A DNA stretch of 64,000 bases, from positions 5,918,188 through 5,982,187 of the forward strand of contig OW818657.1 in the NCBI GenBank assembly GCA_942492905.1, written 5' to 3'. The translations under genes were made by a program, and so were the position numbers. The stretch comes from an uncultured Verrucomicrobiota bacterium (GTDB lineage Bacteria; Verrucomicrobiota; Verrucomicrobiia; Verrucomicrobiales; V1-33). Each line of letters starts with the position of its first letter. The stretch's first letter is position 1. Positions 9,060-23,779 of this stretch are shown here, piece after piece. The notes under the pieces are model-generated. The model was not told where the DNA came from and did no database searches. It worked only from the letters and a program-made list of their open reading frames with translations.

Positions 9060-10475
9060 GTGTCAACCACCGCGCCACAACCCGCCGATGATGGCGTGAA
9101 TCTCCGGAAGAGCGAATACATCGGTTATGCGTTGGGCGATACCGCGTCCAACTTCTTCTTCCAGACCTTCAACATCTTCCTCACCTACTACTATGTGGAT
9201 GTGTGGGGCATCGCACCGACGGTGCTGCTCTGGCTGTTCCCGTTGGTGAGGGCATTCGGGGCGTTTGACGATGTCATCATGGGGCTGATCGCCGACCGCA
9301 CGAAAACCCGGTGGGGAAAATTCAGGCCTTATCTTCTTTTCGGAGCGATTCCCTACGGCATCTGCGGTTATCTCATGTTCCTCGGTCCGGATTTCGGGGA
9401 GACCGGAAAGATCATTTATGCCGGAGTGAGCTACGCGCTTATGATGGTCAGCTACACGGTGATCAATGTGCCCTACTCAGCCATGCTGGGAGTGATCAGC
9501 CCATCGCCGCGCACCCGCACCCTGGCCTCCACCTACCGGTTCGTCGGCGCTTTCGGAGCGGCCTTTCTCATCTCGCTTTTTGTGCGGCCCCTCGTCGAAC
9601 ATCTTGGCGCCGGGAATGAAACCCGCGGCTTCCAGCTGACCATGGCGATCTTCGCCGTGATCTCCGTGGTGCTCATTCTGATCACCTTTGCCACGACCAA
9701 GGAGCGGGTGAAACCCCCGTCGCAGCAGAAAACCAATGTCAAAGAAGAGCTGGGGGAACTTTTCAAAAACTGGCCATGGGTTGTGCTGCTTATCACGTCC
9801 ATTTTCTCCAATGCCTTTTCCGCGCTGCGTTCAGGCAGTTCGATCTTTTATTTCAAATACGTGCAGGGTTATGATTCCACGCCCGTCTGGTGGCGGCTGG
9901 ATCACACCACGCTGTTCCTCACCAGCGGAGCCCTGGGGCTGGTGCTGGGCACCCTGTGCCTCGCCCCCATCGCCCGGAAGGTGGATAAGAAATACTATGC
10001 CGCCGGCCTCAGCTTGATCACCGGCTTGTGTTTCCTGGCATTTTATTTCATCCCGAAAGGAGCCTTCTGGCCCATGGTCGCGCTGAATATGCTGGCGCAG
10101 TTTTGCGCGGGGCCCACCTCTGCCCTGACATGGGCCCTCTACGGCGATGTGGCGGACTATGGCGAGGTCAAATACGGCCGCCGCTCCACCGGCCTCATTT
10201 ATTCGGCGTCGTTGTTTTCCATCAAAGCCGGGATTCTGATCGGCGGTTTTCTGGTGCCGCTTTTCCTCGCCGGATATGGTTATGTCAAAGACGCCCCTGC
10301 ACAGACGACCCATGCCCTGCTGGGCATCGCTCTGGCCTTCTCCATCGGTCCTGCGATCTTTGCCCTGCTGAAGGCTGCGGCGCTGATAGTCTATCCACTC
10401 GATCAAAAACGCGTGGACGAAATAGAGGAATCCCTCGCCTCCCGGCGCAGGGAAACGGAAGCTCCCTCCGCATGA
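9060..10475 (+). CDS. Glycoside-pentoside-hexuronide (GPH):cation symporter, xyloside/oligosaccharide transporter type
   Basis: Polytopic membrane protein with the GPH signature GLIADRTKTRWGKFRPYLLFGAIPYG. GTG start 3 nt after the preceding stop. Its TGA overlaps the GH43 ATG (ATGA at 10472-10475). Confidence 0.85.
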   Translation: MSTTAPQPADDGVNLRKSEYIGYALGDTASNFFFQTFNIFLTYYYVDVWGIAPTVLLWLFPLVRAFGAFDDVIMGLIADRTKTRWGKFRPYLLFGAIPYGICGYLMFLGPDFGETGKIIYAGVSYALMMVSYTVINVPYSAMLGVISPSPRTRTLASTYRFVGAFGAAFLISLFVRPLVEHLGAGNETRGFQLTMAIFAVISVVLILITFATTKERVKPPSQQKTNVKEELGELFKNWPWVVLLITSIFSNAFSALRSGSSIFYFKYVQGYDSTPVWWRLDHTTLFLTSGALGLVLGTLCLAPIARKVDKKYYAAGLSLITGLCFLAFYFIPKGAFWPMVALNMLAQFCAGPTSALTWALYGDVADYGEVKYGRRSTGLIYSASLFSIKAGILIGGFLVPLFLAGYGYVKDAPAQTTHALLGIALAFSIGPAIFALLKAAALIVYPLDQKRVDEIEESLASRRRETEAPSA

Positions 10476-12130
10476 CCATCCGCAATCCTATCCTGCCTGG
10501 TTTCAATCCCGACCCGTCCATCGTGCGGGTGGGGGAGGATTATTACATCGCCACGTCCACCTTCGAGTGGTTTCCCGGGGTGCAGATTCATCACTCACGC
10601 GACCTTGTGAACTGGCGGCTCCTCACGCGTCCCCTGCGGCGGGCCAGCCAGCTCAACATGCTGGGCACGCCTGATTCCTGCGGCGTCTGGGCTCCCTGCC
10701 TGACCTATGCCGATGGCCTGTTCTGGCTGATCTACACGGACGTGAAGCGCTTTGGCCGCATGAGTGTGGCCGGGGCCAGCGGGTCGTCCATGCGGGATTT
10801 TCACAACTACCTGGTCACCTGCCCGGAGATCGATGGCGAATGGTCTGAACCTGTGCCGCTCAACAGCAGCGGATTTGATCCATCTCTTTTCCATGACGAC
10901 GATGGCAGAAAATACCTGCTCAACATGCTCTGGGACCACCGTGCGGGCCACAACCGCTTTGCCGGCATTTTGCTGCAGGAATATTCCACTGAGGAGCAGC
11001 GATTGATCGGTGAGCGGCGGATCATTTTCCATGGCACGGAACTGGGATTCACCGAAGCTCCGCATCTCTACAAACGCGATGGCTGGTATTACCTCCTTAC
11101 GGCGGAGGGCGGCACCTTTTGGGGCCACGCCGTCACCATGGCCCGGTCCCGCGACATTGCCGGTCCCTATGAGCTGCATCCTGACAATCCCCTGCTGACC
11201 TCCCGGGACCGCCCGGATGCCGTGCTCCACCGCGCCGGTCACGCCGATCTGGTCGAGACTCCCGCTGGCGAAACCTACCTGGTTTGCCTCGCCGGGCGCC
11301 CGCTGCCTAACCGGGGCCGGTGTACGCTGGGGCGCGAAACGATCATTCAAAAGATGCGTTGGCATGCGGATGGCTGGCTGCGCACCCTGGATGGCGGCAG
11401 CCTGCCCACATTGGAAACGCCGGCGCCGGATCTGCCAGCGCATCCGTTTCCAACAGCACCTGCGCGGGATGACTTCGACTCGCCGCACCTCGGTGTCGAT
11501 TATCAATGGCTGCGCACGCCGCATCCGGAGGAAATCTTCAGTCTCACTGCCCGGCCCGGCTTTCTTCGACTAACAGGACGCGAGACGCTCGGCAGTCTCT
11601 TCACGCAGGCCCTGGTGGCCCGCCGCCAGCAAGCGCATTGTTTTACGGCGGCGACGGTCATCGGGTTCGAGCCTGACCATTTCCAACAACTCGCGGGCTT
11701 GGTCTGTTACTACAGCAGCACGAAGTTCCATTACCTGCATCTTACCCACAGCGACGCCGCTGGAAAACATCTCCGCGTCATGTCCTGCGTGCCGGATTCC
11801 CCGCAGGCCGACTCCTTCACAGCGCCCATTCCAATTCTGCCAGGACGGCCCGTGCACCTTCGCGTGGAAGTGGACTTTGAGCGGCTCCGGTTCGGCTATC
11901 GGGTGGAAGGTGTGCACGACACCTGGCAATGGCTTCCCGAATCCTTCGATGCCAGCATTTTATCGGACGAATGCAATGCTCCCGGTCACGCCAGCTTCAC
12001 CGGCAACTTCCTCGGCATGGCCTGTCAGGATCTTTCCGGCACGCGAAAGGCTGCCGACTTTGATTCCTTTTACTACGCAGAACGGCCATTTGCCTCCGGG
12101 CTCAACTCCAACCCCCTGACTTTCCTATGA
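10472..12130 (+). CDS. GH43 beta-xylosidase / alpha-L-arabinofuranosidase
   Basis: MTIRNPILPGFNPDPSIVRVGEDYYIATSTFEWFPGVQIHHSRDLVNW is a classic GH43 N-terminus. There is a C-terminal beta-sandwich region. The ORF-track start at 10028 is an upstream in-frame extension overlapping the transporter; ATG 10472 is in frame and coupled. Confidence 0.9.
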   Translation: MTIRNPILPGFNPDPSIVRVGEDYYIATSTFEWFPGVQIHHSRDLVNWRLLTRPLRRASQLNMLGTPDSCGVWAPCLTYADGLFWLIYTDVKRFGRMSVAGASGSSMRDFHNYLVTCPEIDGEWSEPVPLNSSGFDPSLFHDDDGRKYLLNMLWDHRAGHNRFAGILLQEYSTEEQRLIGERRIIFHGTELGFTEAPHLYKRDGWYYLLTAEGGTFWGHAVTMARSRDIAGPYELHPDNPLLTSRDRPDAVLHRAGHADLVETPAGETYLVCLAGRPLPNRGRCTLGRETIIQKMRWHADGWLRTLDGGSLPTLETPAPDLPAHPFPTAPARDDFDSPHLGVDYQWLRTPHPEEIFSLTARPGFLRLTGRETLGSLFTQALVARRQQAHCFTAATVIGFEPDHFQQLAGLVCYYSSTKFHYLHLTHSDAAGKHLRVMSCVPDSPQADSFTAPIPILPGRPVHLRVEVDFERLRFGYRVEGVHDTWQWLPESFDASILSDECNAPGHASFTGNFLGMACQDLSGTRKAADFDSFYYAERPFASGLNSNPLTFL

Positions 12131-13413
12131 AACCCGTCACAAAACTAGTCCGCAGCCTCCTCCTTCCCGCCGTCCTGGTCAGCTCCCTGTTCGCGGCGGA
12201 CGGCCCGGTTACTCTGAAGGATGCCTACGCGCCTCACTTCAAAATAGGAACCTGCATCAACCGCAGTGTCGCCACGGGCCAGGGTGGGCGGCGGAGTGAG
12301 GACCAGGTCAAAGCGGACATCGCCCTGGTGAAGGCGCAGTTCAATCAGGTGGTGGCGGAGAATGAAATGAAGTGGATGAGCCTGCATCCCCGGGCGGGGA
12401 AGGATGGTTATGACTGGACCGCCGCGGACGCCTTTGTGGAGTTCGGAACCAAAAACAATATGGAAATGGCCGGGCACACGCTCGTGTGGCACAGTCAAAC
12501 TCCCAATTGGGTTTTTGAGGGCACCTTTCTGCCGCCGGGTGCCGCGGAAAAACAGAATCCTCCCGCTGCCGAAAGCACCCCGCCGGCGCCACCAGCGCCA
12601 ACGCCGCCGAACGGCGGACCTCCCAGCACCCGGCGCGGACCCGGCGGATTTCCCGGCTTCCGCCCCTTCGATCTCAATGGCCCCCGTGCCACCCGCGAGG
12701 AATTGCTCGAACGCATGCGTGAACACATTCATACCGTGGTGGGCCGGTACAAAGGTAAGATCAAGGTGTGGGACGTGGTGAACGAAGCCATTTCCGATGG
12801 CGGGGATGAGGTCCTGCGGAAGTCCCCGTGGTCCGTCATCATCGGGCCGGACTTTATTGAAAAGGCCTTTGAGTTTGCCCATGAGGCCGATCCAGACGCC
12901 ATCCTCCGCTACAACGACTATGGACTGGAGAACCCGAAGAAGCGCCAAAAACTCATCACCCTCATCAAAGGGCTGCAGGAAAAGAAGATTCCCGTCATGG
13001 CCATCGGCACCCAGGCGCATCTCAATGTCTCCGTGACTTTCGACATCATGGACCAGTCACTGGCGGAAATGAAGACGCTCGGTCTTCCTATCGACGTCAC
13101 GGAACTGGACGTGAACGGAGCCATGGGCGGTCAGGGAGGGTTCGGCGCGGACGTCGCGGGCAATGCCGCAGCCACGGACGGAGGACTGGTCGCCGAGGCT
13201 GACAAAAAACTGACCGAAGCCTACACCGCCGTATTCAAAGCCTTCCTCAAACACAAGGATGCCGTAAAAGTAGTAACCTTCTGGGGCCCCAACGATGCCA
13301 ACTCATGGAGGGGCCGCGCCCGCCCGCTGCTCTTTAATGGAGACAGCAAGCCAAAGCCCGCCTTCGATGCCGTCATTAAACTCGCCACGGAAAATGCGCC
13401 CAAAGCCCCGTAA
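12127..13413 (+). CDS. GH10 endo-1,4-beta-xylanase (secreted) with an internal Pro-rich insertion
   Basis: Signal peptide. GHTLVWHSQTPNWVF, WDVVNEA (acid/base Glu), IDVTELDV (nucleophile Glu). ATGA overlap with the GH43 stop. Confidence 0.9.
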   Translation: MKPVTKLVRSLLLPAVLVSSLFAADGPVTLKDAYAPHFKIGTCINRSVATGQGGRRSEDQVKADIALVKAQFNQVVAENEMKWMSLHPRAGKDGYDWTAADAFVEFGTKNNMEMAGHTLVWHSQTPNWVFEGTFLPPGAAEKQNPPAAESTPPAPPAPTPPNGGPPSTRRGPGGFPGFRPFDLNGPRATREELLERMREHIHTVVGRYKGKIKVWDVVNEAISDGGDEVLRKSPWSVIIGPDFIEKAFEFAHEADPDAILRYNDYGLENPKKRQKLITLIKGLQEKKIPVMAIGTQAHLNVSVTFDIMDQSLAEMKTLGLPIDVTELDVNGAMGGQGGFGADVAGNAAATDGGLVAEADKKLTEAYTAVFKAFLKHKDAVKVVTFWGPNDANSWRGRARPLLFNGDSKPKPAFDAVIKLATENAPKAP

Positions 13414-14310
<897 letters not shown>

Positions 14311-14421: not shown

Positions 14422-16992
14422 ATGAAATACCTTCTGCCGGTTGTCTTAACTCTACTGCTGCCTTTGCTCTGTCACGCGCAGGATCCGTCCCGGTTTGAAA
14501 AAGAAGTGTTGGCTGCGGGATTGAGTGACCCGCTGCAACTGGACATCGCCCAGGACGGACGGGTGTTTTTCATTGAGCGGAAGGGAGCGGTGAAAGTGTG
14601 GGAGCCGGCATCGCGGAGCACGGTGACGATTGGCGATTTCCCCTGCGCCACGGGTGGGGATGCGGGGGGGCTGGGGCTGACCCTGGCGCGGGATTTCCAA
14701 AAGAGCGGTCATCTTTATACGATCCGCGTGCCCGCGCAGGGCGAGGCGAAGCTGTTGTTGGCGCGCTTCAAACTCGAAGGCGGGAAGCTCGTGGACGAGC
14801 ATGCGGTTCTGACCATTCCGCTGGGCAAAGGGCGGGACCAGTCCCACTGCGGTGCGGGGCTTGCCTGGGATGCGCAGGGCAACCTCATCATCAGCGTCGG
14901 AGACAATATGGCGCCGCAGGATGTGCCGGCGGTTCATGCCGAAGACGCCGGGCGCGATGCGCGAGGCACGGCGGGAAATTCGCAGGAGTTGCGCGGGAAG
15001 ATTCTGCGTATCACCCCGCAGGCGGACGGCTCCTACGGCATCCCTTCTGGCAATCTTTTCCCCAATCCCCAACAAGGACGACCGGAGGTGTTCGCGTTTG
15101 GGGTGCGGAATCCATTTCGCGTCACTTGCGATGCGAAGACGGGTTTTATCATCTGGGGAGACGTGGGGGGCAACGTGCGCACGGAACTCGATCTGGGCCC
15201 GGAGGGTTTTGATGAGTTGAACGTGACGCGGGAACCGGGGTTTTTCGGCTGGCCGTTCTGTGCCGGGCCCAACCTGCCGTGGCGTCCGTTTGATCCGAAG
15301 ACGCAGAAGCCGGCCGGAGCGTTTTTTGATCCGGCAAAACTCATCAATGACAGCCGCTTCAACACGGGGCTGAAGGAGTTGCCGCCCGCCCGGCCTGCCG
15401 CTTTTTATTACGACAATCTGGCCTCGGAAGAGTGGCCGTTTGCCGGCAGCGGCGGGCGGAGCATCACCGGCGGCGTGGTTTACCGGAAGCCGGAGGCAGC
15501 GGGGGAATCGCGCCTGCCCGACGAATGGGAGGGGGCCTATCTTTTCTGCGAATGGATGCGCAACTGGGTGGCGGCGGCACGCTTCGACGGGGACGGCAAG
15601 CTGGTGAAGGCGGAGCGGGTGCTGGAAGGGTTGACGTTCAAGCGGCCGGCCGATTTAAAGATCGGGCCGGACGGTGCCCTCTACCTCGCGGAGTGCGGCG
15701 ACCAGTGGACCGGAAATACCGATAGCCGGATCACACGCGTGACTTACTGGCGCGGGAATCGGCCACCCGAAGCCGTGGTAGGTGCGGACCGCGTCGCCGG
15801 CAAGCTGCCGCTGGAGGTCGCGTTCGATGCCGCAGCCTCGCGTGACGCGGACGGCGGGGAGTTGAAATTCACTTGGGATTTTGGAGATGGAAAGCAGGCC
15901 GGAGGCGTCAAAACCAGCCACGTTTTCACCACAGCGGGCGTGTGGCCCGTAACGCTCACGGTCACGGATGCACAGGAGACCGCCGCCACGGCCGTGGTGA
16001 ATATCGCAGCCGGAAATGAAGCGCCCCGGGTGAAGTTTGCCACTCCGCTGGACGGCGGATTTTTGGATGGGAAGGAAATCGCCTGGACCGTCAACGCCAC
16101 GGATGCGGAGGATGGCGCGGTGCCGGCGGAGCGACTGCTGATTCAGCTGGAGAAACGCGACCGGGCAGCGACGGAAGAGACGCATCCCGGGCTGGCGCTG
16201 ATGAAAGGCACCACTTGTTTTGCCTGTCACAATGCCACGGATCAAAGCGCGGGCCCGCCCTATGCCGCCATCGCTGCGAAGTATGCCGCAGATTCCGGGG
16301 CGCGGGAAACATTGCAGGCGAAAATCATCCAGGGAGGGGCCGGGGTGTGGGGCCCATTGCCCATGCCGCCGCATCCGCAACACACGCCGGCCGAGGCGGC
16401 ACTGATGGTGGATTGGGTGTTGTCCTTGGCTCAACGCCGGATCACCGCGCTGCCCGCCGCCGCTGAGGGCAAAGCTGCCGTGCCGGCGACCGTGGGCGGG
16501 TTCGGCCGCGCGGACAATACCGTGATGTTCCTGACCGCCGCCACGACGGACCAGGGGGCCGGCGTGCTGCCACCGCTGCGGGGTTCCACCGAGGTGATGC
16601 TGCGCAGCCGGCGTCAGCGCGCCGCGTGCTTCGACCACGGTGAAAAAGCCGCCGCCCAGGACAATCTCGATCAGGGCGGACTGGTGGCGCGCATTCATCC
16701 CGGCGGCTGGATCGGGTTTGACCGCATCCGGCTGCAGGACTTCGGGCTCCTGAAACTGACTGCCTGGCCGCAAGGCGCGGCCCCACTCACCGTTAGCATT
16801 CTCACCGGTGGCCAGGAGCTGGCGCGGCAAACCCTGCCGCCCGGCCCGGCTGCCGGCCGGCCGCCTCCGGAATTCGTGTTCCCCATGCCGTCCGCCACCG
16901 AAGCCGGCCCGCCTCAGCAGGTGCGGATCAAATTGGAAGGCTCTGCCGGGAGTGTGCTGGAGATAATGTGGGTGGAATTCCAGCGGCGTTAG
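14422..16992 (+). CDS. PQQ-type soluble sugar dehydrogenase (GSDH beta-propeller) + PKD domain + cytochrome c + C-terminal CBM6-like domain
   Basis: FEKEVLAAGLSDPLQLDIAQDGRVFFIERKGAVKVW and VFAFGVRNPFRVTCDAKTGFIIWGDVG are GSDH-like. WDFGDG marks a PKD domain. Heme motif CFACH at nt 16216-16230, with GVWGPLPMPPH. The C-terminal segment GGWIGFDRIRL...VLEIMWVEF is CBM-like. Confidence 0.85.
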   Translation: MKYLLPVVLTLLLPLLCHAQDPSRFEKEVLAAGLSDPLQLDIAQDGRVFFIERKGAVKVWEPASRSTVTIGDFPCATGGDAGGLGLTLARDFQKSGHLYTIRVPAQGEAKLLLARFKLEGGKLVDEHAVLTIPLGKGRDQSHCGAGLAWDAQGNLIISVGDNMAPQDVPAVHAEDAGRDARGTAGNSQELRGKILRITPQADGSYGIPSGNLFPNPQQGRPEVFAFGVRNPFRVTCDAKTGFIIWGDVGGNVRTELDLGPEGFDELNVTREPGFFGWPFCAGPNLPWRPFDPKTQKPAGAFFDPAKLINDSRFNTGLKELPPARPAAFYYDNLASEEWPFAGSGGRSITGGVVYRKPEAAGESRLPDEWEGAYLFCEWMRNWVAAARFDGDGKLVKAERVLEGLTFKRPADLKIGPDGALYLAECGDQWTGNTDSRITRVTYWRGNRPPEAVVGADRVAGKLPLEVAFDAAASRDADGGELKFTWDFGDGKQAGGVKTSHVFTTAGVWPVTLTVTDAQETAATAVVNIAAGNEAPRVKFATPLDGGFLDGKEIAWTVNATDAEDGAVPAERLLIQLEKRDRAATEETHPGLALMKGTTCFACHNATDQSAGPPYAAIAAKYAADSGARETLQAKIIQGGAGVWGPLPMPPHPQHTPAEAALMVDWVLSLAQRRITALPAAAEGKAAVPATVGGFGRADNTVMFLTAATTDQGAGVLPPLRGSTEVMLRSRRQRAACFDHGEKAAAQDNLDQGGLVARIHPGGWIGFDRIRLQDFGLLKLTAWPQGAAPLTVSILTGGQELARQTLPPGPAAGRPPPEFVFPMPSATEAGPPQQVRIKLEGSAGSVLEIMWVEFQRR

Positions 16993-17158: not shown

Positions 17159-17761
17159 CTAATAAACCTCAGGCAATAGCCCCGCCTTTTTCTGCTCATA
17201 CCGACAATTCTTAGCTCCCTCAGGTTTGGTATTTTGTCTTGTTCGGGTGTTAAGGAGGTCAGGCAGCGTTTCAGGAAACCCCATCCTGATCCGGTATGCT
17301 TCAGGCTCATGTCGCTTAAGATTTCTGTAAATTGAAATTTCCTGCCGCCGCCAGCGGGTCGCGTCCGAATCATCAAGGCTTGCGACACGGATTAATCTGC
17401 GGCCCTCTGCGCAAAGTGGGTTGATGGTGCCATTCTTAGCTACGGACACGAGGGTGCCGTAGCCCAGCTTGCAGGGATCTGGCATCCGGCCCGCTGATTT
17501 CCAACTATTGCAAGTCGTGCAGGCAAGAACGAGGTTAGAATATGTGGTATCCAGGTCCCTGCGTTGCGAGCGTGGGACCAAATGTTCGACGACCCAAATG
17601 GCTCTCCGACGCTCCCACGTTTCCCGACGCAGACAATAGACGCAGCGGAAGTCGAACTCATCCCGAAGCCAATCCTTGTAGTCGGCATAGTCGGAGTAGC
17701 CGGACGGACCGTGTTTACGACAGTGGGGCTGGGTGGGATACAGAAACGGCTCAGGACTCAT
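17159..17761 (-). CDS. HNH endonuclease (200 aa)
   Basis: HNH/Zn-finger core CVYCLRRETWERRRAIWVVEHLVPRSQRRDLDTTYSNLVLACTTCNSWK (nt ~17498-17644). The start overlaps the methyltransferase stop by 4 nt (ATGA on the minus strand at 17758-17761). Confidence 0.85.
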   Translation of the reverse strand: MSPEPFLYPTQPHCRKHGPSGYSDYADYKDWLRDEFDFRCVYCLRRETWERRRAIWVVEHLVPRSQRRDLDTTYSNLVLACTTCNSWKSAGRMPDPCKLGYGTLVSVAKNGTINPLCAEGRRLIRVASLDDSDATRWRRQEISIYRNLKRHEPEAYRIRMGFPETLPDLLNTRTRQNTKPEGAKNCRYEQKKAGLLPEVY

Positions 17762-20505
17762 TCACTCCATTTGCCCTCCCGTTTGAGTCTTTCGATCAGA
17801 GCCTCCTGTTCCTCAAATGGGAAAGGGGCCACCAGTCGCCGCCTCAACAGGGCAAAGTGTTGGAGCTGCTCCAATTCTCCGACCTCGGTCTTCTTGAGCT
17901 TGCCTTTATACTCCAAATCAATGAGGTCCAAGCGCCGGGCATTGGTTGCTTCCCAATCCGCCGTGATGGTCAGCAGTTCCTGCAGGGTCTGTGCTCCATC
18001 GAATCCGGCGGGATAATATTCAGTCTGATGAAATGGCACACCCTCCCGTTCGTAGCCTGTAAAGAAGTCTAGTAGTTTCCGTTCCAGTTCCTGCGGCAGT
18101 TTGTAGAGTGCCAGAACGGCGGCATCCAGCCGCCAGTGAAGGTGCTTTAGGTAGTCATCATGGTCTGGAGGATTTTCGTTCAGTTCCAAGCCGGGCAATT
18201 CTGCCGAGTCCAATCTCCTTGCTGCCTGGACAGAGCGTTTTGATGTTCTGCCGGGTTTCAATGATCCGCTGGCTGCGTCGCGATACTGCTTTGCCAACTT
18301 CTCGATATGATCCTGTTGGGCCTCGGTAATTGTTGGTAACGGGAGCTGTTCGACCGTGCCGGAAAGGATATCCCGCTTGCTGGAGTAGGATTTCGTAAAC
18401 GCGTTTGCCAAAGGTGAATTGAGAATAGCCCATAGACAAATTGGTATTATTTGAGTCTCCTCGGTTTCCTGTGATTTAACAGGGCGAATTACAAGAAACC
18501 GACCTCGGGTGGGGTGACCGATTGCATCAAAGTATGCGAGATTTCTCCACGGGCCTCGGCTGATTGGGGAGTGGTTCATAACCACCTTTGGTATGCCAGT
18601 TTCACATCCTGCAACGGCTCGATCTATCGCTGCATCGTCAAACAGAAGCCATTGAAGATGGGGTAATTGATGGGAAAATCCAGTCTGCTTTAGATCATAG
18701 AAACCAAGGCGATACCCCGATTGTTTCGTGCTTACACGCTTGGGTTTTCCCTTGGGAAACGTGGGATCCGACTCTGCCTTATAAATGAATCCTTGTCCGG
18801 CGGCAGCAGCCTTTCCGAGCTTGTTGAAGCGGGAACAAAAATCCCAGACATCCACCAAATCCGGCACAAGCATTGAGACAGCATCGTCGGCCAGCATTCC
18901 CGCAGCCTCCCGCTCCTGCGTCACGGTTGGCTTACCCTTGGTCTCAAACTCCGGCAGTCCGCCATCCCACACATGGTTGATTCGCACAGGCACCGTGGAT
19001 CTGTTCTTTCCGGACAATTTGCGACCGATGATTATAGCGGTTTCAACATCAGCTTTTTCGAAGACTTTGTCAGGAAGGCGCAGGATTTCCTGCCACTCGA
19101 AGTGTCCCAGCAAGTCTTTCCGCAAAGCGGTAGCCTTTTTGGAATCAAGAATCGTCTGTGGCATGATGTAGGCCACCAAGGTGCCGGGCTTGGCATTCAG
19201 ACTAATCCTGCGGAGTAACTCGGCGGCCTGACCAACATGGAAAAGTTCGTCACCTGCGCTGGGCCGGGTTTCGAACGGGGGATTTGAAATGATGATATCA
19301 GCGTTTGCGAGGCGGGACTCCATCCGTCCATTTCGGAACATATCCCCATCATCCAACTCCCAGCCGTTTGGATTCGGGATATCCGCCAGCGTCAGCGAAA
19401 GGCGAGCAACTTCGCGGGCGAAGTCATCGGTCTCCGCGCCGACCAGCCGGGATTGAAGCCACGCATGTCTTTCCACATCATTCATGGCGATGCAGGGCTT
19501 CATGCCGGAGAATAGCCTGAGCATCGCCACCAAGAACGGAGCATGACCGCAACCTGGCTCGTAAACTTTGCGGCGTGACTCCGGCTGTGCTTCGACCCAA
19601 GGCGTGAGCCGTTGCACGATGTAATTCACAAGCCACGCTGGAGTGCTGTGAGTTCCGAGCGCTTTGCGGGTCTCCTTGGTGATAAGCACGTTTTCATAAA
19701 CGCGGGCCAGCGTTTCCGTGCTTACCAGCCGCAGTGAGCTGTGGGAGTTGAGAATATCCGCAGCGCCCGTCAGGGCTTTGCGGCGACGTTGCGAAAGCGC
19801 GTGCTGCGGTCGCGATCCATAGTGCCGCGCCACGCGTGAAAAGACATTGTCCAAATCCTCCAAATCAAGTGTTTTGAAGTTTTGTACTTGTTTGTCGTGG
19901 AGCAGGCGGGCCGCGAGGAGCCAGAAGTTCGCTTGGACCAGCCATTGAGCATCCATTTCCTCCAATTCCTTGAAGGCAGCCATGTTCAGCTTTTCGCGGG
20001 TGGCAAGAATCATGCTCTCTACCAAGCAGCAGAGCTGCGCGCTGGATTCAGATTCCACCATCTCCAGCAGGCCGATATCCACGAAACTCAGCTGCCGACT
20101 AATATCGAGGCGTGCGGTTGTCTTGGCGCGATAAATAGACCGTGGATCAAGCTTCGAACGGTAGGCTTGGAAAAAAGCATCCAAGGAGCCATTATCAGGA
20201 TCCCATAGGCGGCAAGGTTGAGCGGGGGTCAATTGCCAGACGCTCCAGTGTTGGCCTGAGCCAAGAAAGGCAAGAGGTGCTCCAGTATCGCGCCCCACAT
20301 TCAAAAAGGCACTTGGGTCATTCTGATCGGGCGCGGCCACCACACACGCGGTCCGCGTGTCAAATGGGCGGTGTGAGAAAGCCAGTAGCGGCACCGTGCT
20401 TTTTCCAAAAAGAAAATCCGGGGCAAGATTTTCGCGGGCAAATCCACACCGCTCGAGATGCGAGCGAAGCTGACGGTCATCGAACGCTGGACGGGAAAAT
20501 GACAA
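17758..20505 (-). CDS. Gamma-class N6-adenine DNA methyltransferase with target-recognition domain (Eco57I/MmeI-like size and layout), 915 aa
   Basis: SAM motif I VYEPGCGHAPFLV. Catalytic motif IV IIISNPPFE (NPPF at nt 19273-19284). TRD-like WAILNSPLANAF. The uncharacterised N-terminal ~250 aa and C-terminal ~150 aa remain unassigned. The start is a TTG at 20505 and is uncertain. Confidence 0.85.
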   Translation of the reverse strand: MSFSRPAFDDRQLRSHLERCGFARENLAPDFLFGKSTVPLLAFSHRPFDTRTACVVAAPDQNDPSAFLNVGRDTGAPLAFLGSGQHWSVWQLTPAQPCRLWDPDNGSLDAFFQAYRSKLDPRSIYRAKTTARLDISRQLSFVDIGLLEMVESESSAQLCCLVESMILATREKLNMAAFKELEEMDAQWLVQANFWLLAARLLHDKQVQNFKTLDLEDLDNVFSRVARHYGSRPQHALSQRRRKALTGAADILNSHSSLRLVSTETLARVYENVLITKETRKALGTHSTPAWLVNYIVQRLTPWVEAQPESRRKVYEPGCGHAPFLVAMLRLFSGMKPCIAMNDVERHAWLQSRLVGAETDDFAREVARLSLTLADIPNPNGWELDDGDMFRNGRMESRLANADIIISNPPFETRPSAGDELFHVGQAAELLRRISLNAKPGTLVAYIMPQTILDSKKATALRKDLLGHFEWQEILRLPDKVFEKADVETAIIIGRKLSGKNRSTVPVRINHVWDGGLPEFETKGKPTVTQEREAAGMLADDAVSMLVPDLVDVWDFCSRFNKLGKAAAAGQGFIYKAESDPTFPKGKPKRVSTKQSGYRLGFYDLKQTGFSHQLPHLQWLLFDDAAIDRAVAGCETGIPKVVMNHSPISRGPWRNLAYFDAIGHPTRGRFLVIRPVKSQETEETQIIPICLWAILNSPLANAFTKSYSSKRDILSGTVEQLPLPTITEAQQDHIEKLAKQYRDAASGSLKPGRTSKRSVQAARRLDSAELPGLELNENPPDHDDYLKHLHWRLDAAVLALYKLPQELERKLLDFFTGYEREGVPFHQTEYYPAGFDGAQTLQELLTITADWEATNARRLDLIDLEYKGKLKKTEVGELEQLQHFALLRRRLVAPFPFEEQEALIERLKREGKWSE

Positions 20506-20591: not shown

Positions 20592-20626
20592 AAGAAAAAA
20601 GCCGCCCCGGATGACTCCGGGGCGGC
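20592..20626 (-). terminator. Rho-independent terminator downstream of ppdK
   Basis: On the minus strand: GCCGCCCCGG-agtcat-CCGGGGCGGC, followed by TTTTTTC. 10-bp GC stem (20601-20610 / 20617-20626), 27 nt after the ppdK stop. Confidence 0.75.
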
Positions 20627-20653
20627 TTCGTGATTTAAGCTGATGGAAGCGGA

Positions 20654-23458
<2,805 letters not shown>

Positions 23459-23570
23459 TTGTGGTTCTGCTGGTTGGGTTGGATTGTGGAAGTGGAACGG
23501 GGAGGAAGCGCTACCGGGCCGGAAGGGGCAATGCAGTTAGCGCCCGAAACGTCCGGTCCGGGGAGGCGGG

Positions 23571-23598
23571 ACTTTAATGGGGACGGTCAGGGAGTCAA
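23571..23598 (-). promoter_or_regulatory. Candidate sigma70-type promoter for ppdK (TTGACT-16 nt-TAAAGT on the minus strand)
   Basis: -35 = reverse complement of 23593-23598; -10 = reverse complement of 23571-23576. ~110 nt upstream of the start codon. Based on the hexamer match only. Confidence 0.3.
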
Positions 23599-23744
23599 AC
23601 CGGGAGTTGGGGGTGGCGCCAGCCGGGTTTGTTGGCAGGACAGGGGTTCGGCCGCACCGGAAGCTGACCTGCGCCCTTGTGTTATCGCTGTTTTACGGGT
23701 TAGACGGCCGTGCTGCGGATGGGCTCAGGCCTCACCGGGTAAAT

Positions 23745-23779
23745 AACAAAAACTCCTGGAGACCGGGAGTCTCCAGGAG
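23745..23779 (-). terminator. Rho-independent terminator downstream of infC
   Basis: Minus strand: CTCCTGGAGAC-tcccg-GTCTCCAGGAG followed by TTTTTG. 11-bp stem (23753-23763 / 23769-23779). Confidence 0.7.

Follow-up and report, generated by a model that had tools for sequence, protein, structure and literature searches.

A type IIG-like DNA methyltransferase and a PtuB-like HNH nuclease form a conserved two-gene module that may hold a latent toxin

The window analysed here is a stretch of 64,000 nucleotides from an uncultured Verrucomicrobiota bacterium (assembly GCA_942492905.1, contig OW818657.1, positions 5,918,188 to 5,982,187). On its reverse strand lies a gene for a 915-amino-acid (aa) DNA methyltransferase, followed by an overlapping gene for a 200-aa HNH nuclease (Table 1). 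The two genes constitute one conserved module, and the HNH protein is a true functional partner of the methyltransferase, more than a neighbour. Judged by sequence, the methyltransferase motifs are intact and the canonical nuclease catalytic residues are missing. At its end the protein has a helical tail that is invariably accompanied by a PtuB-like HNH family, whether it sits on the methyltransferase or on small upstream proteins, and sister clades of the same scaffold pair different tails with different toxin-antitoxin-type toxins, VapC-like PIN or RES. We give roughly even chances to the reading that a nuclease-dead type IIG-like methyltransferase holds a latent toxin via an antitoxin-like tail.

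An earlier note, made from the letters of the window, had read the locus as a possible split type IIL/IIG-like system in which cleavage was outsourced to the HNH protein, and had not recognised the arrangement as a described system. In agreement with the latter point, full-text literature searches returned no module of a methyltransferase with an HNH, PIN or RES protein and no methyltransferase-antitoxin fusion, and neither the tail nor the methyltransferase-HNH pair has a model in PADLOC 2.0.

Results

Conservation of the methyltransferase-HNH pair

A GTDB scan with one genome per species found 192 relatives of the scaffold, and the best 80 loci were analysed and scored with hidden Markov models (HMMs) for the body of the methyltransferase, for its tail (aa 836-915) and for the HNH protein. 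Effector frequencies from this sample, and from the metagenome sample described below, are no population estimates; both are skewed to the query clades, and the first to the query sequence. The tail is present in 67 of the 80 methyltransferases, and an HNH gene lies directly downstream, on the same strand and within a few tens of bases, in every assessable tail-bearing locus (65/65). Twelve methyltransferases lack the tail, and an HNH gene occurs nowhere in their loci (0/12); one of the 80 loci is truncated by a contig end.

The closest relatives of the window methyltransferase belong to Verrucomicrobiota. Relatives at 60%, 48% and 39% identity all carry the HNH gene directly downstream, and the pair is kept at 39-72% identity with unrelated flanks. 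The pairing is not due to chance, because the 65 assessable relatives keep the HNH gene in unrelated surroundings. Mere adjacency of two unrelated genes, with the HNH protein as, for example, a selfish homing-type endonuclease, could appeal to the general mobility of HNH genes; it is refuted by the unbroken association with the tail in different contexts, on the same strand and at near-zero spacing, and by the ATGA overlap of the two genes, and we give it next to no credence. Neighbours of some relatives are linked to defence, namely Shedu, a BseRI-like type IIG enzyme and toxin-antitoxin genes.

Several loci show peculiarities of their own. One HNH-type methyltransferase (L091:2299-5004) is split into three reading-frame pieces, by a frameshift or an assembly error, with tail and HNH intact. 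Just upstream of the module in the 60%-identical relative, a tandem-duplicated unit of an integrase fragment and an IS91/Y2 transposase is followed by a ParE-type toxin-antitoxin pair (L001:644-5003). Five HNH-type loci (L022, L025, L030, L032 and L044) are assigned to metagenome-assembled genomes (MAGs) that bear the labels Klebsiella, Enterobacteriaceae, Bifidobacteriaceae or Heliobacteriaceae; the proteins that they encode have their nearest counterparts in Binatia/Acidobacteriota, which suggests mis-binning or recent transfer.

Domain organization of the methyltransferase

Motif I precedes motif IV in the 915-aa protein, which is the gamma-class order given in the earlier note, and nearly all HNH-, PIN- and RES-type members checked retain both motifs. 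This large family counts >478 proteins of ~900 aa and is conserved end to end. Sequence searches recognise only the methyltransferase domain. Its best sequence family is Pfam N6_Mtase, of HsdM type (2.6e-16, 60.3 bits against a cut-off of 20.4), and among solved structures EcoKI HsdM matches at the sequence level at 2e-10. Pfam MmeI_Mtase reaches 19.2 bits, short of its gathering score of 27, and the other MmeI domains are unmatched. The best PADLOC match is MADS mad2 (5e-22, aa 217-500), with type I methyltransferase models matching as well. NCBIfam scores are far below their cut-offs, at 17.5 bits against 720 for MAD2 (NF047738) and 13 bits against 500 for PglX.

An AlphaFold2 (AF2) model built on a 107-sequence alignment has a predicted local distance difference test (pLDDT) score of 91.8 and a predicted template modelling (pTM) score of 0.89. 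An alpha/beta N-terminal domain (aa 11-129) is followed by long linker helices, the methyltransferase domain, a beta-rich target-recognition domain (TRD) and a disordered linker (aa 767-779). The C-terminus consists of helices at aa 782-813, a conserved GVPFxQxEY loop and tail helices at aa 841-847, 851-866, 872-892 and 897-909, the last three of which make up the shared module. In Foldseek searches of the PDB the full protein matched BpuSI in an alignment across the full length (2.7e-18), DrdV (4e-16) and MmeI (2.9e-14), in addition to CamA, M.BseCI and BREX BrxX/PglX (1e-16 to 1e-14); identity to the type IIG/IIL enzymes is 11-14%. The likeness to MmeI suggested earlier holds for the overall shape and fails for the sequence family. 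The TRD-like region is upheld by the beta-rich model and by the fold matches to CamA, M.BseCI and MmeI, which extend over their TRDs. Mean major-residue frequency is 0.52 in the TRD against 0.65 in the methyltransferase domain, and it is highest, at 0.70, in aa 782-840, the most conserved stretch of the protein. The C-terminal tail had been put at ~150 aa; it is helical as described, and the family-specific extension is shorter, about 75-135 aa.

A degenerate domain at the nuclease position

The absence of a D...(D/E)XK pattern from the N-terminal ~250 residues, already remarked upon, is confirmed: aa 1-260 of the window protein lack any [DE]xK, and an alignment of 107 family members shows no conserved motif of this kind. 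Modelled alone, the N-terminal domain reaches a pLDDT of 84, and AF2 gives it the secondary structure a-b-b-b-a-b-b-b. It has no Pfam match and no nuclease family match at the sequence level. A Foldseek search of the PDB with the domain alone found nothing significant (best E 0.08), the non-significant top matches being PD-(D/E)XK nuclease domains, namely those of DrdV, BpuSI, an HsdR N-terminal fragment, Hjc and the SPARDA nuclease. No conserved acidic residue or lysine occupies the canonical strand positions. In distant Rhizobiaceae relatives a serine replaces D49 (92%), the sole well-conserved acidic residue here. Because the canonical acidic and lysine positions are unconserved and D49 is replaced in this way, we read the domain as nuclease-like but degenerate, retained at the place of the type IIG nuclease.

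Invariant residues are found where this domain ends. R126-A127-K128, just before the linker, is invariant across the 107 sequences, as is F141-x-D143-x7-E151, which is followed by E153 (91% acidic; about 20047-20130). The region is kept in distant relatives at 28% identity as HRAKS and QLDFVD. K128, D143, E151 and E153 lie close in sequence and might belong to a still-active, non-canonical nuclease, with the HNH protein as an accessory or second nuclease; the string FVD-x7-E-x-E loosely resembles the FVD-x9-ExK motif of MmeI. However, the model places these residues with confidence in a helix that follows the alpha/beta domain, off the strands of that domain, the ExK position has no lysine, and the lack of sequence-level nuclease matches applies here too. 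Such an activity seems to us highly improbable.

The HNH protein and the tail family

The HNH gene answers to its earlier description as a 200-aa CxxC...H...N...CxxC gene starting in an ATGA overlap. Its catalytic residues appear intact: C40xxC43, H60, N76, C81xxC84-N85 and K88 are invariant, and there are conserved C-terminal motifs too. The protein matches Pfam HNH (E 7.5e-9), PADLOC PtuB (3e-12, with weaker matches to further PtuB models) and retron HNH_I-A (2e-7), reaching aa 151. The NCBIfam PtuB score is 23.3 bits against a cut-off of 150, and the match to a solved PtuB chain is marginal (E 0.33).

The tail carries the signature W851-x3-N-x-RR-x2-LID ... EL-x2-LQ ... AP-x-P. Profile searches of Pfam, NCBIfam, PADLOC and the PDB gave no match to it, and it shows no similarity to PtuA models. 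Distant HNH homologues (~40% identity) have no adjacent methyltransferase; a small open reading frame (ORF) overlaps the HNH start instead, by 4 nt in L006-L008, in a layout resembling that of toxin-antitoxin pairs. An HMM of the methyltransferase tail only matches these small ORFs at 2e-14, 2e-10 and 2e-8, and matches nothing else up to E = 10 among 2,801 ORFs. At further HNH loci it matches an 85-aa protein that is approximately the tail alone (1e-14) and a 187-aa protein with the tail (1e-12). The small upstream tail proteins are 85-187 aa long and some are tail only, tail-only forms having 80-91 aa. Their family has >528 members, all annotated as "hypothetical" and without a Pfam domain. 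Out of 1.84 billion cluster representatives (clusters at 50% identity), a combined tail profile retrieved 2,052, of which 654 score E <= 1e-10. In nearly every case the tail forms the very C-terminus, on proteins of 72-290 aa with varied N-terminal parts; a handful of longer proteins with different N-terminal parts carry it too, as do the methyltransferases. BREX lies near one of the small-protein/HNH pairs.

The tail is seen with such different N-terminal parts on P0397 (246 aa) and on P0383 and P0418 (433 and 440 aa). One of these has a DUF4062/TIR-like domain (8e-16) and two have weak SBP_bac_3-like matches, and these may represent further sensor-tail-HNH combinations. A 318-aa ORF without Pfam or NCBIfam match (L007:5656-6612) overlaps the start of a small tail-bearing gene, and some small-protein/HNH modules may have three genes. 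A Phd/YefM-like N-terminus of the small HNH partners, spotted by eye, was rejected, since a YefM profile comparison gave a probability of 0.1% and the Pfam search was empty.

The same scaffold with other tails and toxins

All 12 methyltransferases without the HNH-type tail are followed by a PIN gene encoding 166-188 aa, at a gap of -38 to +6 nt, and they share a different tail of ~50 aa. The five PIN partners tested match Pfam PIN at 1e-8 to 2e-14. The best NCBIfam match is the VapC tRNA(fMet) endonuclease (4e-16, below its cut-off), and GYLLDTN, ENDLWIAAQA and LVT(H/N)D are common motifs. Three full-length relatives with 28-30% identity were found among annotated plasmids of cultured Rhizobiaceae, and these match the HMMs of the N-terminal domain (1e-22 or better) and the body (1e-140 or better). 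Agrobacterium tumefaciens pAtA74a_a has the methyltransferase with a PIN gene and an adjoining Shedu gene, Sinorhizobium chiapasense also has a PIN partner, and in Rhizobium sp. Q54 the methyltransferase gene overlaps by 4 nt the gene of a RES-domain protein (Pfam RES 1.5e-16), with a BseRI-like enzyme adjoining. The C-terminus of the Q54 methyltransferase matches, below threshold and in order, Xre-MbcA-ParS_M (E 0.011) and Xre_MbcA_ParS_C (E 1.5e-4), the latter being an antitoxin C-terminal toxin-binding domain. From these profile matches, the RES-type methyltransferase looks like one that ends in an MbcA/ParS-type toxin-binding domain. Where Xre/MbcA/ParS-RES pairs have been characterised, the RES toxin acts on NAD+ or Prs and is not known to be a nuclease.

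Relatives of the scaffold number at least 386 in metagenomes. A metagenome scan seeded with the Rhizobiaceae clade yielded 61 loci in which the 3' end is complete and an ORF follows downstream. The downstream partner is a PIN protein in 56 of them, a RES protein in two (Pfam 2.5e-17 and 7.7e-20) and a divergent HNH protein with a divergent tail in one; two were left unassigned. One RES-type locus has an MbcA/ParS middle-domain match, and in the other the typical W...LGG.RPID motif was seen by eye at the terminus. In total the scaffold is partnered by VapC-like PIN in 12 + 2 + 56 loci and by RES in 3 loci. An HMM of the Planctomycete PIN-type tails did not match the Rhizobiaceae PIN-type tails, and a search around PIN homologues on plasmids for a free-standing antitoxin with the PIN-type tail gave only remote VapC genes.

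These partners bear on the split enzyme of the earlier note, a type IIG/IIL-like restriction enzyme in which the tail would recruit the HNH protein as DNA-cleaving subunit, self DNA would be methylated and unmethylated DNA would be cut near the TRD site. Much of what was found agrees with it: the fold, the dead domain at the nuclease position, the intact methyltransferase and TRD, and the co-occurrence of tail and HNH without exception in the sampled loci, which also fits recruitment by the C-terminal extension, one of the two that the note had named. Type I enzymes provide an analogy, as the HsdM C-terminus helps to bind HsdR. HNH domains are, moreover, common DNA nucleases, and Septu PtuB has been reported to be a DNase (PMC12475279). 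However, the scaffold exchanges the HNH protein for a VapC-like PIN protein, of a type best known for tRNA cleavage, or for a RES protein, a kind of toxin not known to be a nuclease. Tail-only partners of 80-91 aa cannot supply DNA targeting to the HNH homologues, and the window HNH protein matched no restriction-endonuclease model in PADLOC. What survives of the proposal is the nuclease-dead shape and the HNH partnership; as a whole we find it unlikely, though for the HNH branch alone a split restriction enzyme is possible. Antitoxin-like control is preferred over a simple replacement of the cleavage domain because the scaffold also pairs with PIN and RES and because the tail is homologous to the tiny HNH partners.

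The locus in the window

The coordinates of the module are collected in Table 1. The TTG start at 20505 is supported by the methionine of homologues, which falls in the same alignment column. In the public annotation of the genome the methyltransferase has only 774 aa (P0001); its start is 141 codons late, and the whole N-terminal nuclease-like domain (20083-20505, (-)) is therefore omitted. The intrinsic terminator of the upstream pyruvate phosphate dikinase (PPDK) gene is the 5' boundary of the two-gene unit. The pair is a low-GC two-gene insert (GC 0.536 over 18-20 kb, against ~0.60 in the flanks) between the PPDK gene and a convergent GSDH/PKD/cytochrome c gene.

Table 1. Features of the methyltransferase-HNH locus (window coordinates; aa, amino acids)
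Feature	Position	Strand	Detail	Basis
Methyltransferase/TRD scaffold gene	17758..20505	(-)	915 aa, TTG start	ORF, homologue start column, AF2 model, fold matches
N-terminal alpha/beta domain at type IIG nuclease position, without catalytic motif	20101..20505	(-)	aa 1-135	AF2, Foldseek, alignment
Helical linker region with invariant D143 and E151	19726..20100	(-)	aa 136-260	Columns invariant across 107 sequences
Gamma-class N6-adenine DNA methyltransferase domain	19006..19725	(-)	aa 261-500	Pfam N6_Mtase, EcoKI HsdM
Motif I, EPGCGHAPF	19534-19560	(-)	aa 316-324	
Motif IV, NPPF	19273-19284	(-)	aa 408-411	
Target-recognition region, beta-rich in model	18208..19005	(-)	aa 501-766	AF2, fold matches
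Disordered, poorly conserved linker	18163..18207	(-)	aa 767-781	pLDDT <50 at 767-779; conservation 0.39
Conserved C-terminal helices and GVPFxQxEYxP loop	17986..18162	(-)	aa 782-840	Common to HNH-, PIN- and RES-type relatives
HNH-cognate helical tail	17761..17985	(-)	aa 841-915	AF2 helices, tail-HNH co-occurrence, tail HMM
ATGA stop/start overlap coupling the methyltransferase and HNH genes	17758..17761	(-)		
HNH nuclease gene, PtuB-like	17159..17761	(-)	200 aa, ATG start	ORF, Pfam HNH
HNH catalytic core	17498-17644	(-)	aa 40-88	
HNH conserved C-terminal extension	17162-17497	(-)	aa 89-200	
Intrinsic terminator of upstream PPDK gene	20598..20629	(-)	14-bp stem and T run, strong	

The position of the insert between housekeeping genes would suit an addiction module, in which the toxin and the fused tail would do no more than keep an orphan (regulatory or epigenetic) methyltransferase gene stable through post-segregational killing and would have no part in phage defence. 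The toxin-antitoxin-like layout, with interchangeable toxins of three classes, is of the same kind, and no relative was found in the viral contigs of IMG/VR. On the other side, the 900-aa scaffold keeps, across phyla, both the dead domain at the nuclease position and a diversifying TRD, which suggests that it does more than methylate. The Shedu and BseRI-like neighbours of several relatives, and BREX near a small-protein/HNH pair, also point away from pure addiction, which we judge to be improbable.

The surroundings offer some further observations. The PPDK gene of the window (20654-23458, (-)) adjoins the module. In an unrelated MAG, another PPDK gene (L007:1852-5025) adjoins a small-protein/HNH module; the two sites may share an insertion hotspot, or the likeness may be a coincidence. 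A 983-aa ORF without family match (20795-23746, (+)) lies antisense to the dikinase gene and is a long shadow ORF of the sort usual in GC-rich DNA, no gene. The GSDH/PKD/cytochrome c gene (14422-16992) is the next after a xylan-utilisation cluster (10028-14310, (+)) of a GH43 beta-xylosidase, a GH10 xylanase and a SASA-type acetylesterase.

Discussion

A giant antitoxin-like holder is the most economical account, because the tail partners HNH proteins alone or on small proteins and the scaffold takes VapC-like and RES toxins via other tails. In the mechanism that we propose, the tail would dock the HNH protein physically and keep it latent, as an antitoxin C-terminus holds its toxin. The methyltransferase would mark the host genome at the site specified by the TRD and would serve as the sensing part. 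The retention of methyltransferase catalysis and the variability of the TRD suggest that self-marking matters, and the cue may therefore be unmethylated DNA or an anti-restriction attack on the methyltransferase. The toxin would be freed or activated when the methyltransferase engages foreign DNA that is unmethylated, when an anti-restriction protein of a phage attacks, or when the module is lost. In the window the toxin would be the HNH nuclease, which would cut nucleic acid, and the likely outcome would be abortive-infection-like defence or restriction-like damage.

Several points weigh against the latent-toxin reading. We infer the contact between tail and HNH protein from co-occurrence and homology, and both the inhibition of the HNH protein by the tail, as opposed to mere recruitment, and the toxicity of the HNH protein are predicted. 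The trigger of toxin release is speculation. The MbcA/ParS matches of the Q54 protein are slightly below the Pfam gathering scores (22.1 bits against 24.5 for Xre_MbcA_ParS_C). The invariant K128, D143 and E151, together with E153, could form a non-canonical active site, and the window flanks are housekeeping or metabolic genes and no defence island. More tentatively still, and at somewhat less than even chances, the family may constitute a new immune or conflict class with methylation-based discrimination of self from non-self, in which the restriction arm is swapped for latent HNH, PIN or RES toxins on cognate tails and abortive infection is triggered.

The module shares features with several known systems. 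Type IIG/IIL enzymes such as BpuSI, MmeI and DrdV have the same size and order, with an N-terminal domain, helical linker, gamma-class m6A methyltransferase, TRD and C-terminal helices. In contrast to these, the window protein has no PD-(D/E)XK residues in its N-terminal domain and does not match the MmeI family models, and the scaffold adds a C-terminal tail and an obligate separate HNH, PIN or RES partner. BREX PglX/BrxX is likewise a type IIG-like methyltransferase/TRD protein without nuclease activity of its own in a defence system, but the window neighbourhood holds no BrxA, BrxB, BrxC, PglZ or other BREX genes, and the partner is a single toxin-type gene. The PADLOC likeness to MADS mad2 is limited to the methyltransferase domain, and none of the other mad genes is present. 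N6_Mtase of HsdM type is shared with type I systems, but HsdS and HsdR genes are absent from the window neighbourhood and from the relatives' loci examined.

With Septu PtuAB and type I-A retrons the module has in common an HNH protein with a C-terminal extension, which resembles PtuB in PADLOC, and a partner that ends in a helical tail. In those systems the ATPase's C-terminal triple helix clasps the PtuB-type HNH protein's C-terminal extension, and this HNH protein acts on release, as a tRNA-Ser-depleting toxin in retron I-A and reportedly as a DNase in Septu (PMC12475279). The partner here is instead a DNA methyltransferase and no SMC/ABC-type ATPase, and there is no PtuA gene, retron reverse transcriptase or non-coding RNA. 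Type II toxin-antitoxin systems (VapBC; Xre/MbcA/ParS-RES) resemble the module in that the gene of an upstream partner overlaps the toxin gene, the C-terminal module of the partner is toxin-specific, one scaffold combines with HNH, PIN and RES, and the HNH tail is also found on antitoxin-sized proteins. Combinatorial networks of toxin-antitoxin domains have been described (PMC10440598), and the partner swapping of the scaffold resembles these. They differ in that the 'antitoxin' is here a 900-aa methyltransferase/TRD protein, its motifs apparently intact, from which the usual DNA-binding autoregulator domain is absent.

A latent toxin coupled to restriction-modification proteins, or abortive infection upon sensing of anti-restriction, is known from PrrC-EcoprrI and PARIS. 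PrrC is silenced by EcoprrI and released when a phage inhibits EcoprrI, and PARIS senses an anti-restriction protein and responds by abortive infection (PMC12707154). PrrC-EcoprrI differs as a complete type I system with its own HsdR, whereas no separate restriction subunit is found here and the coupling is by a fused tail. A 2017 survey reported PIN genes near type I subunits and stated that a direct interaction between restriction-modification and toxin-antitoxin systems had yet to be shown (PMC5499597).

Experiments are feasible because cultured hosts encode close analogues, namely A. tumefaciens A74a, Sinorhizobium chiapasense, Rhizobium sp. Q54 and Chthoniobacter flavus Ellin428. The HNH-cognate helical tail is a new, unannotated and widespread domain, with ~2,000 clusters at 50% identity, and the arrangement of a sensor scaffold with a swappable tail and a swappable toxin provides a testable design rule. 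If it is true that the tail gates the nuclease by DNA methylation state, it could be of use as a programmable switch. If the latent-toxin reading is true, the scaffold family would be a physical link between restriction-modification and toxin-antitoxin systems, which have long been compared as analogous. The module is made of known kinds newly combined; should the methylation-gated release of swappable toxins be confirmed, it would amount to a new class.

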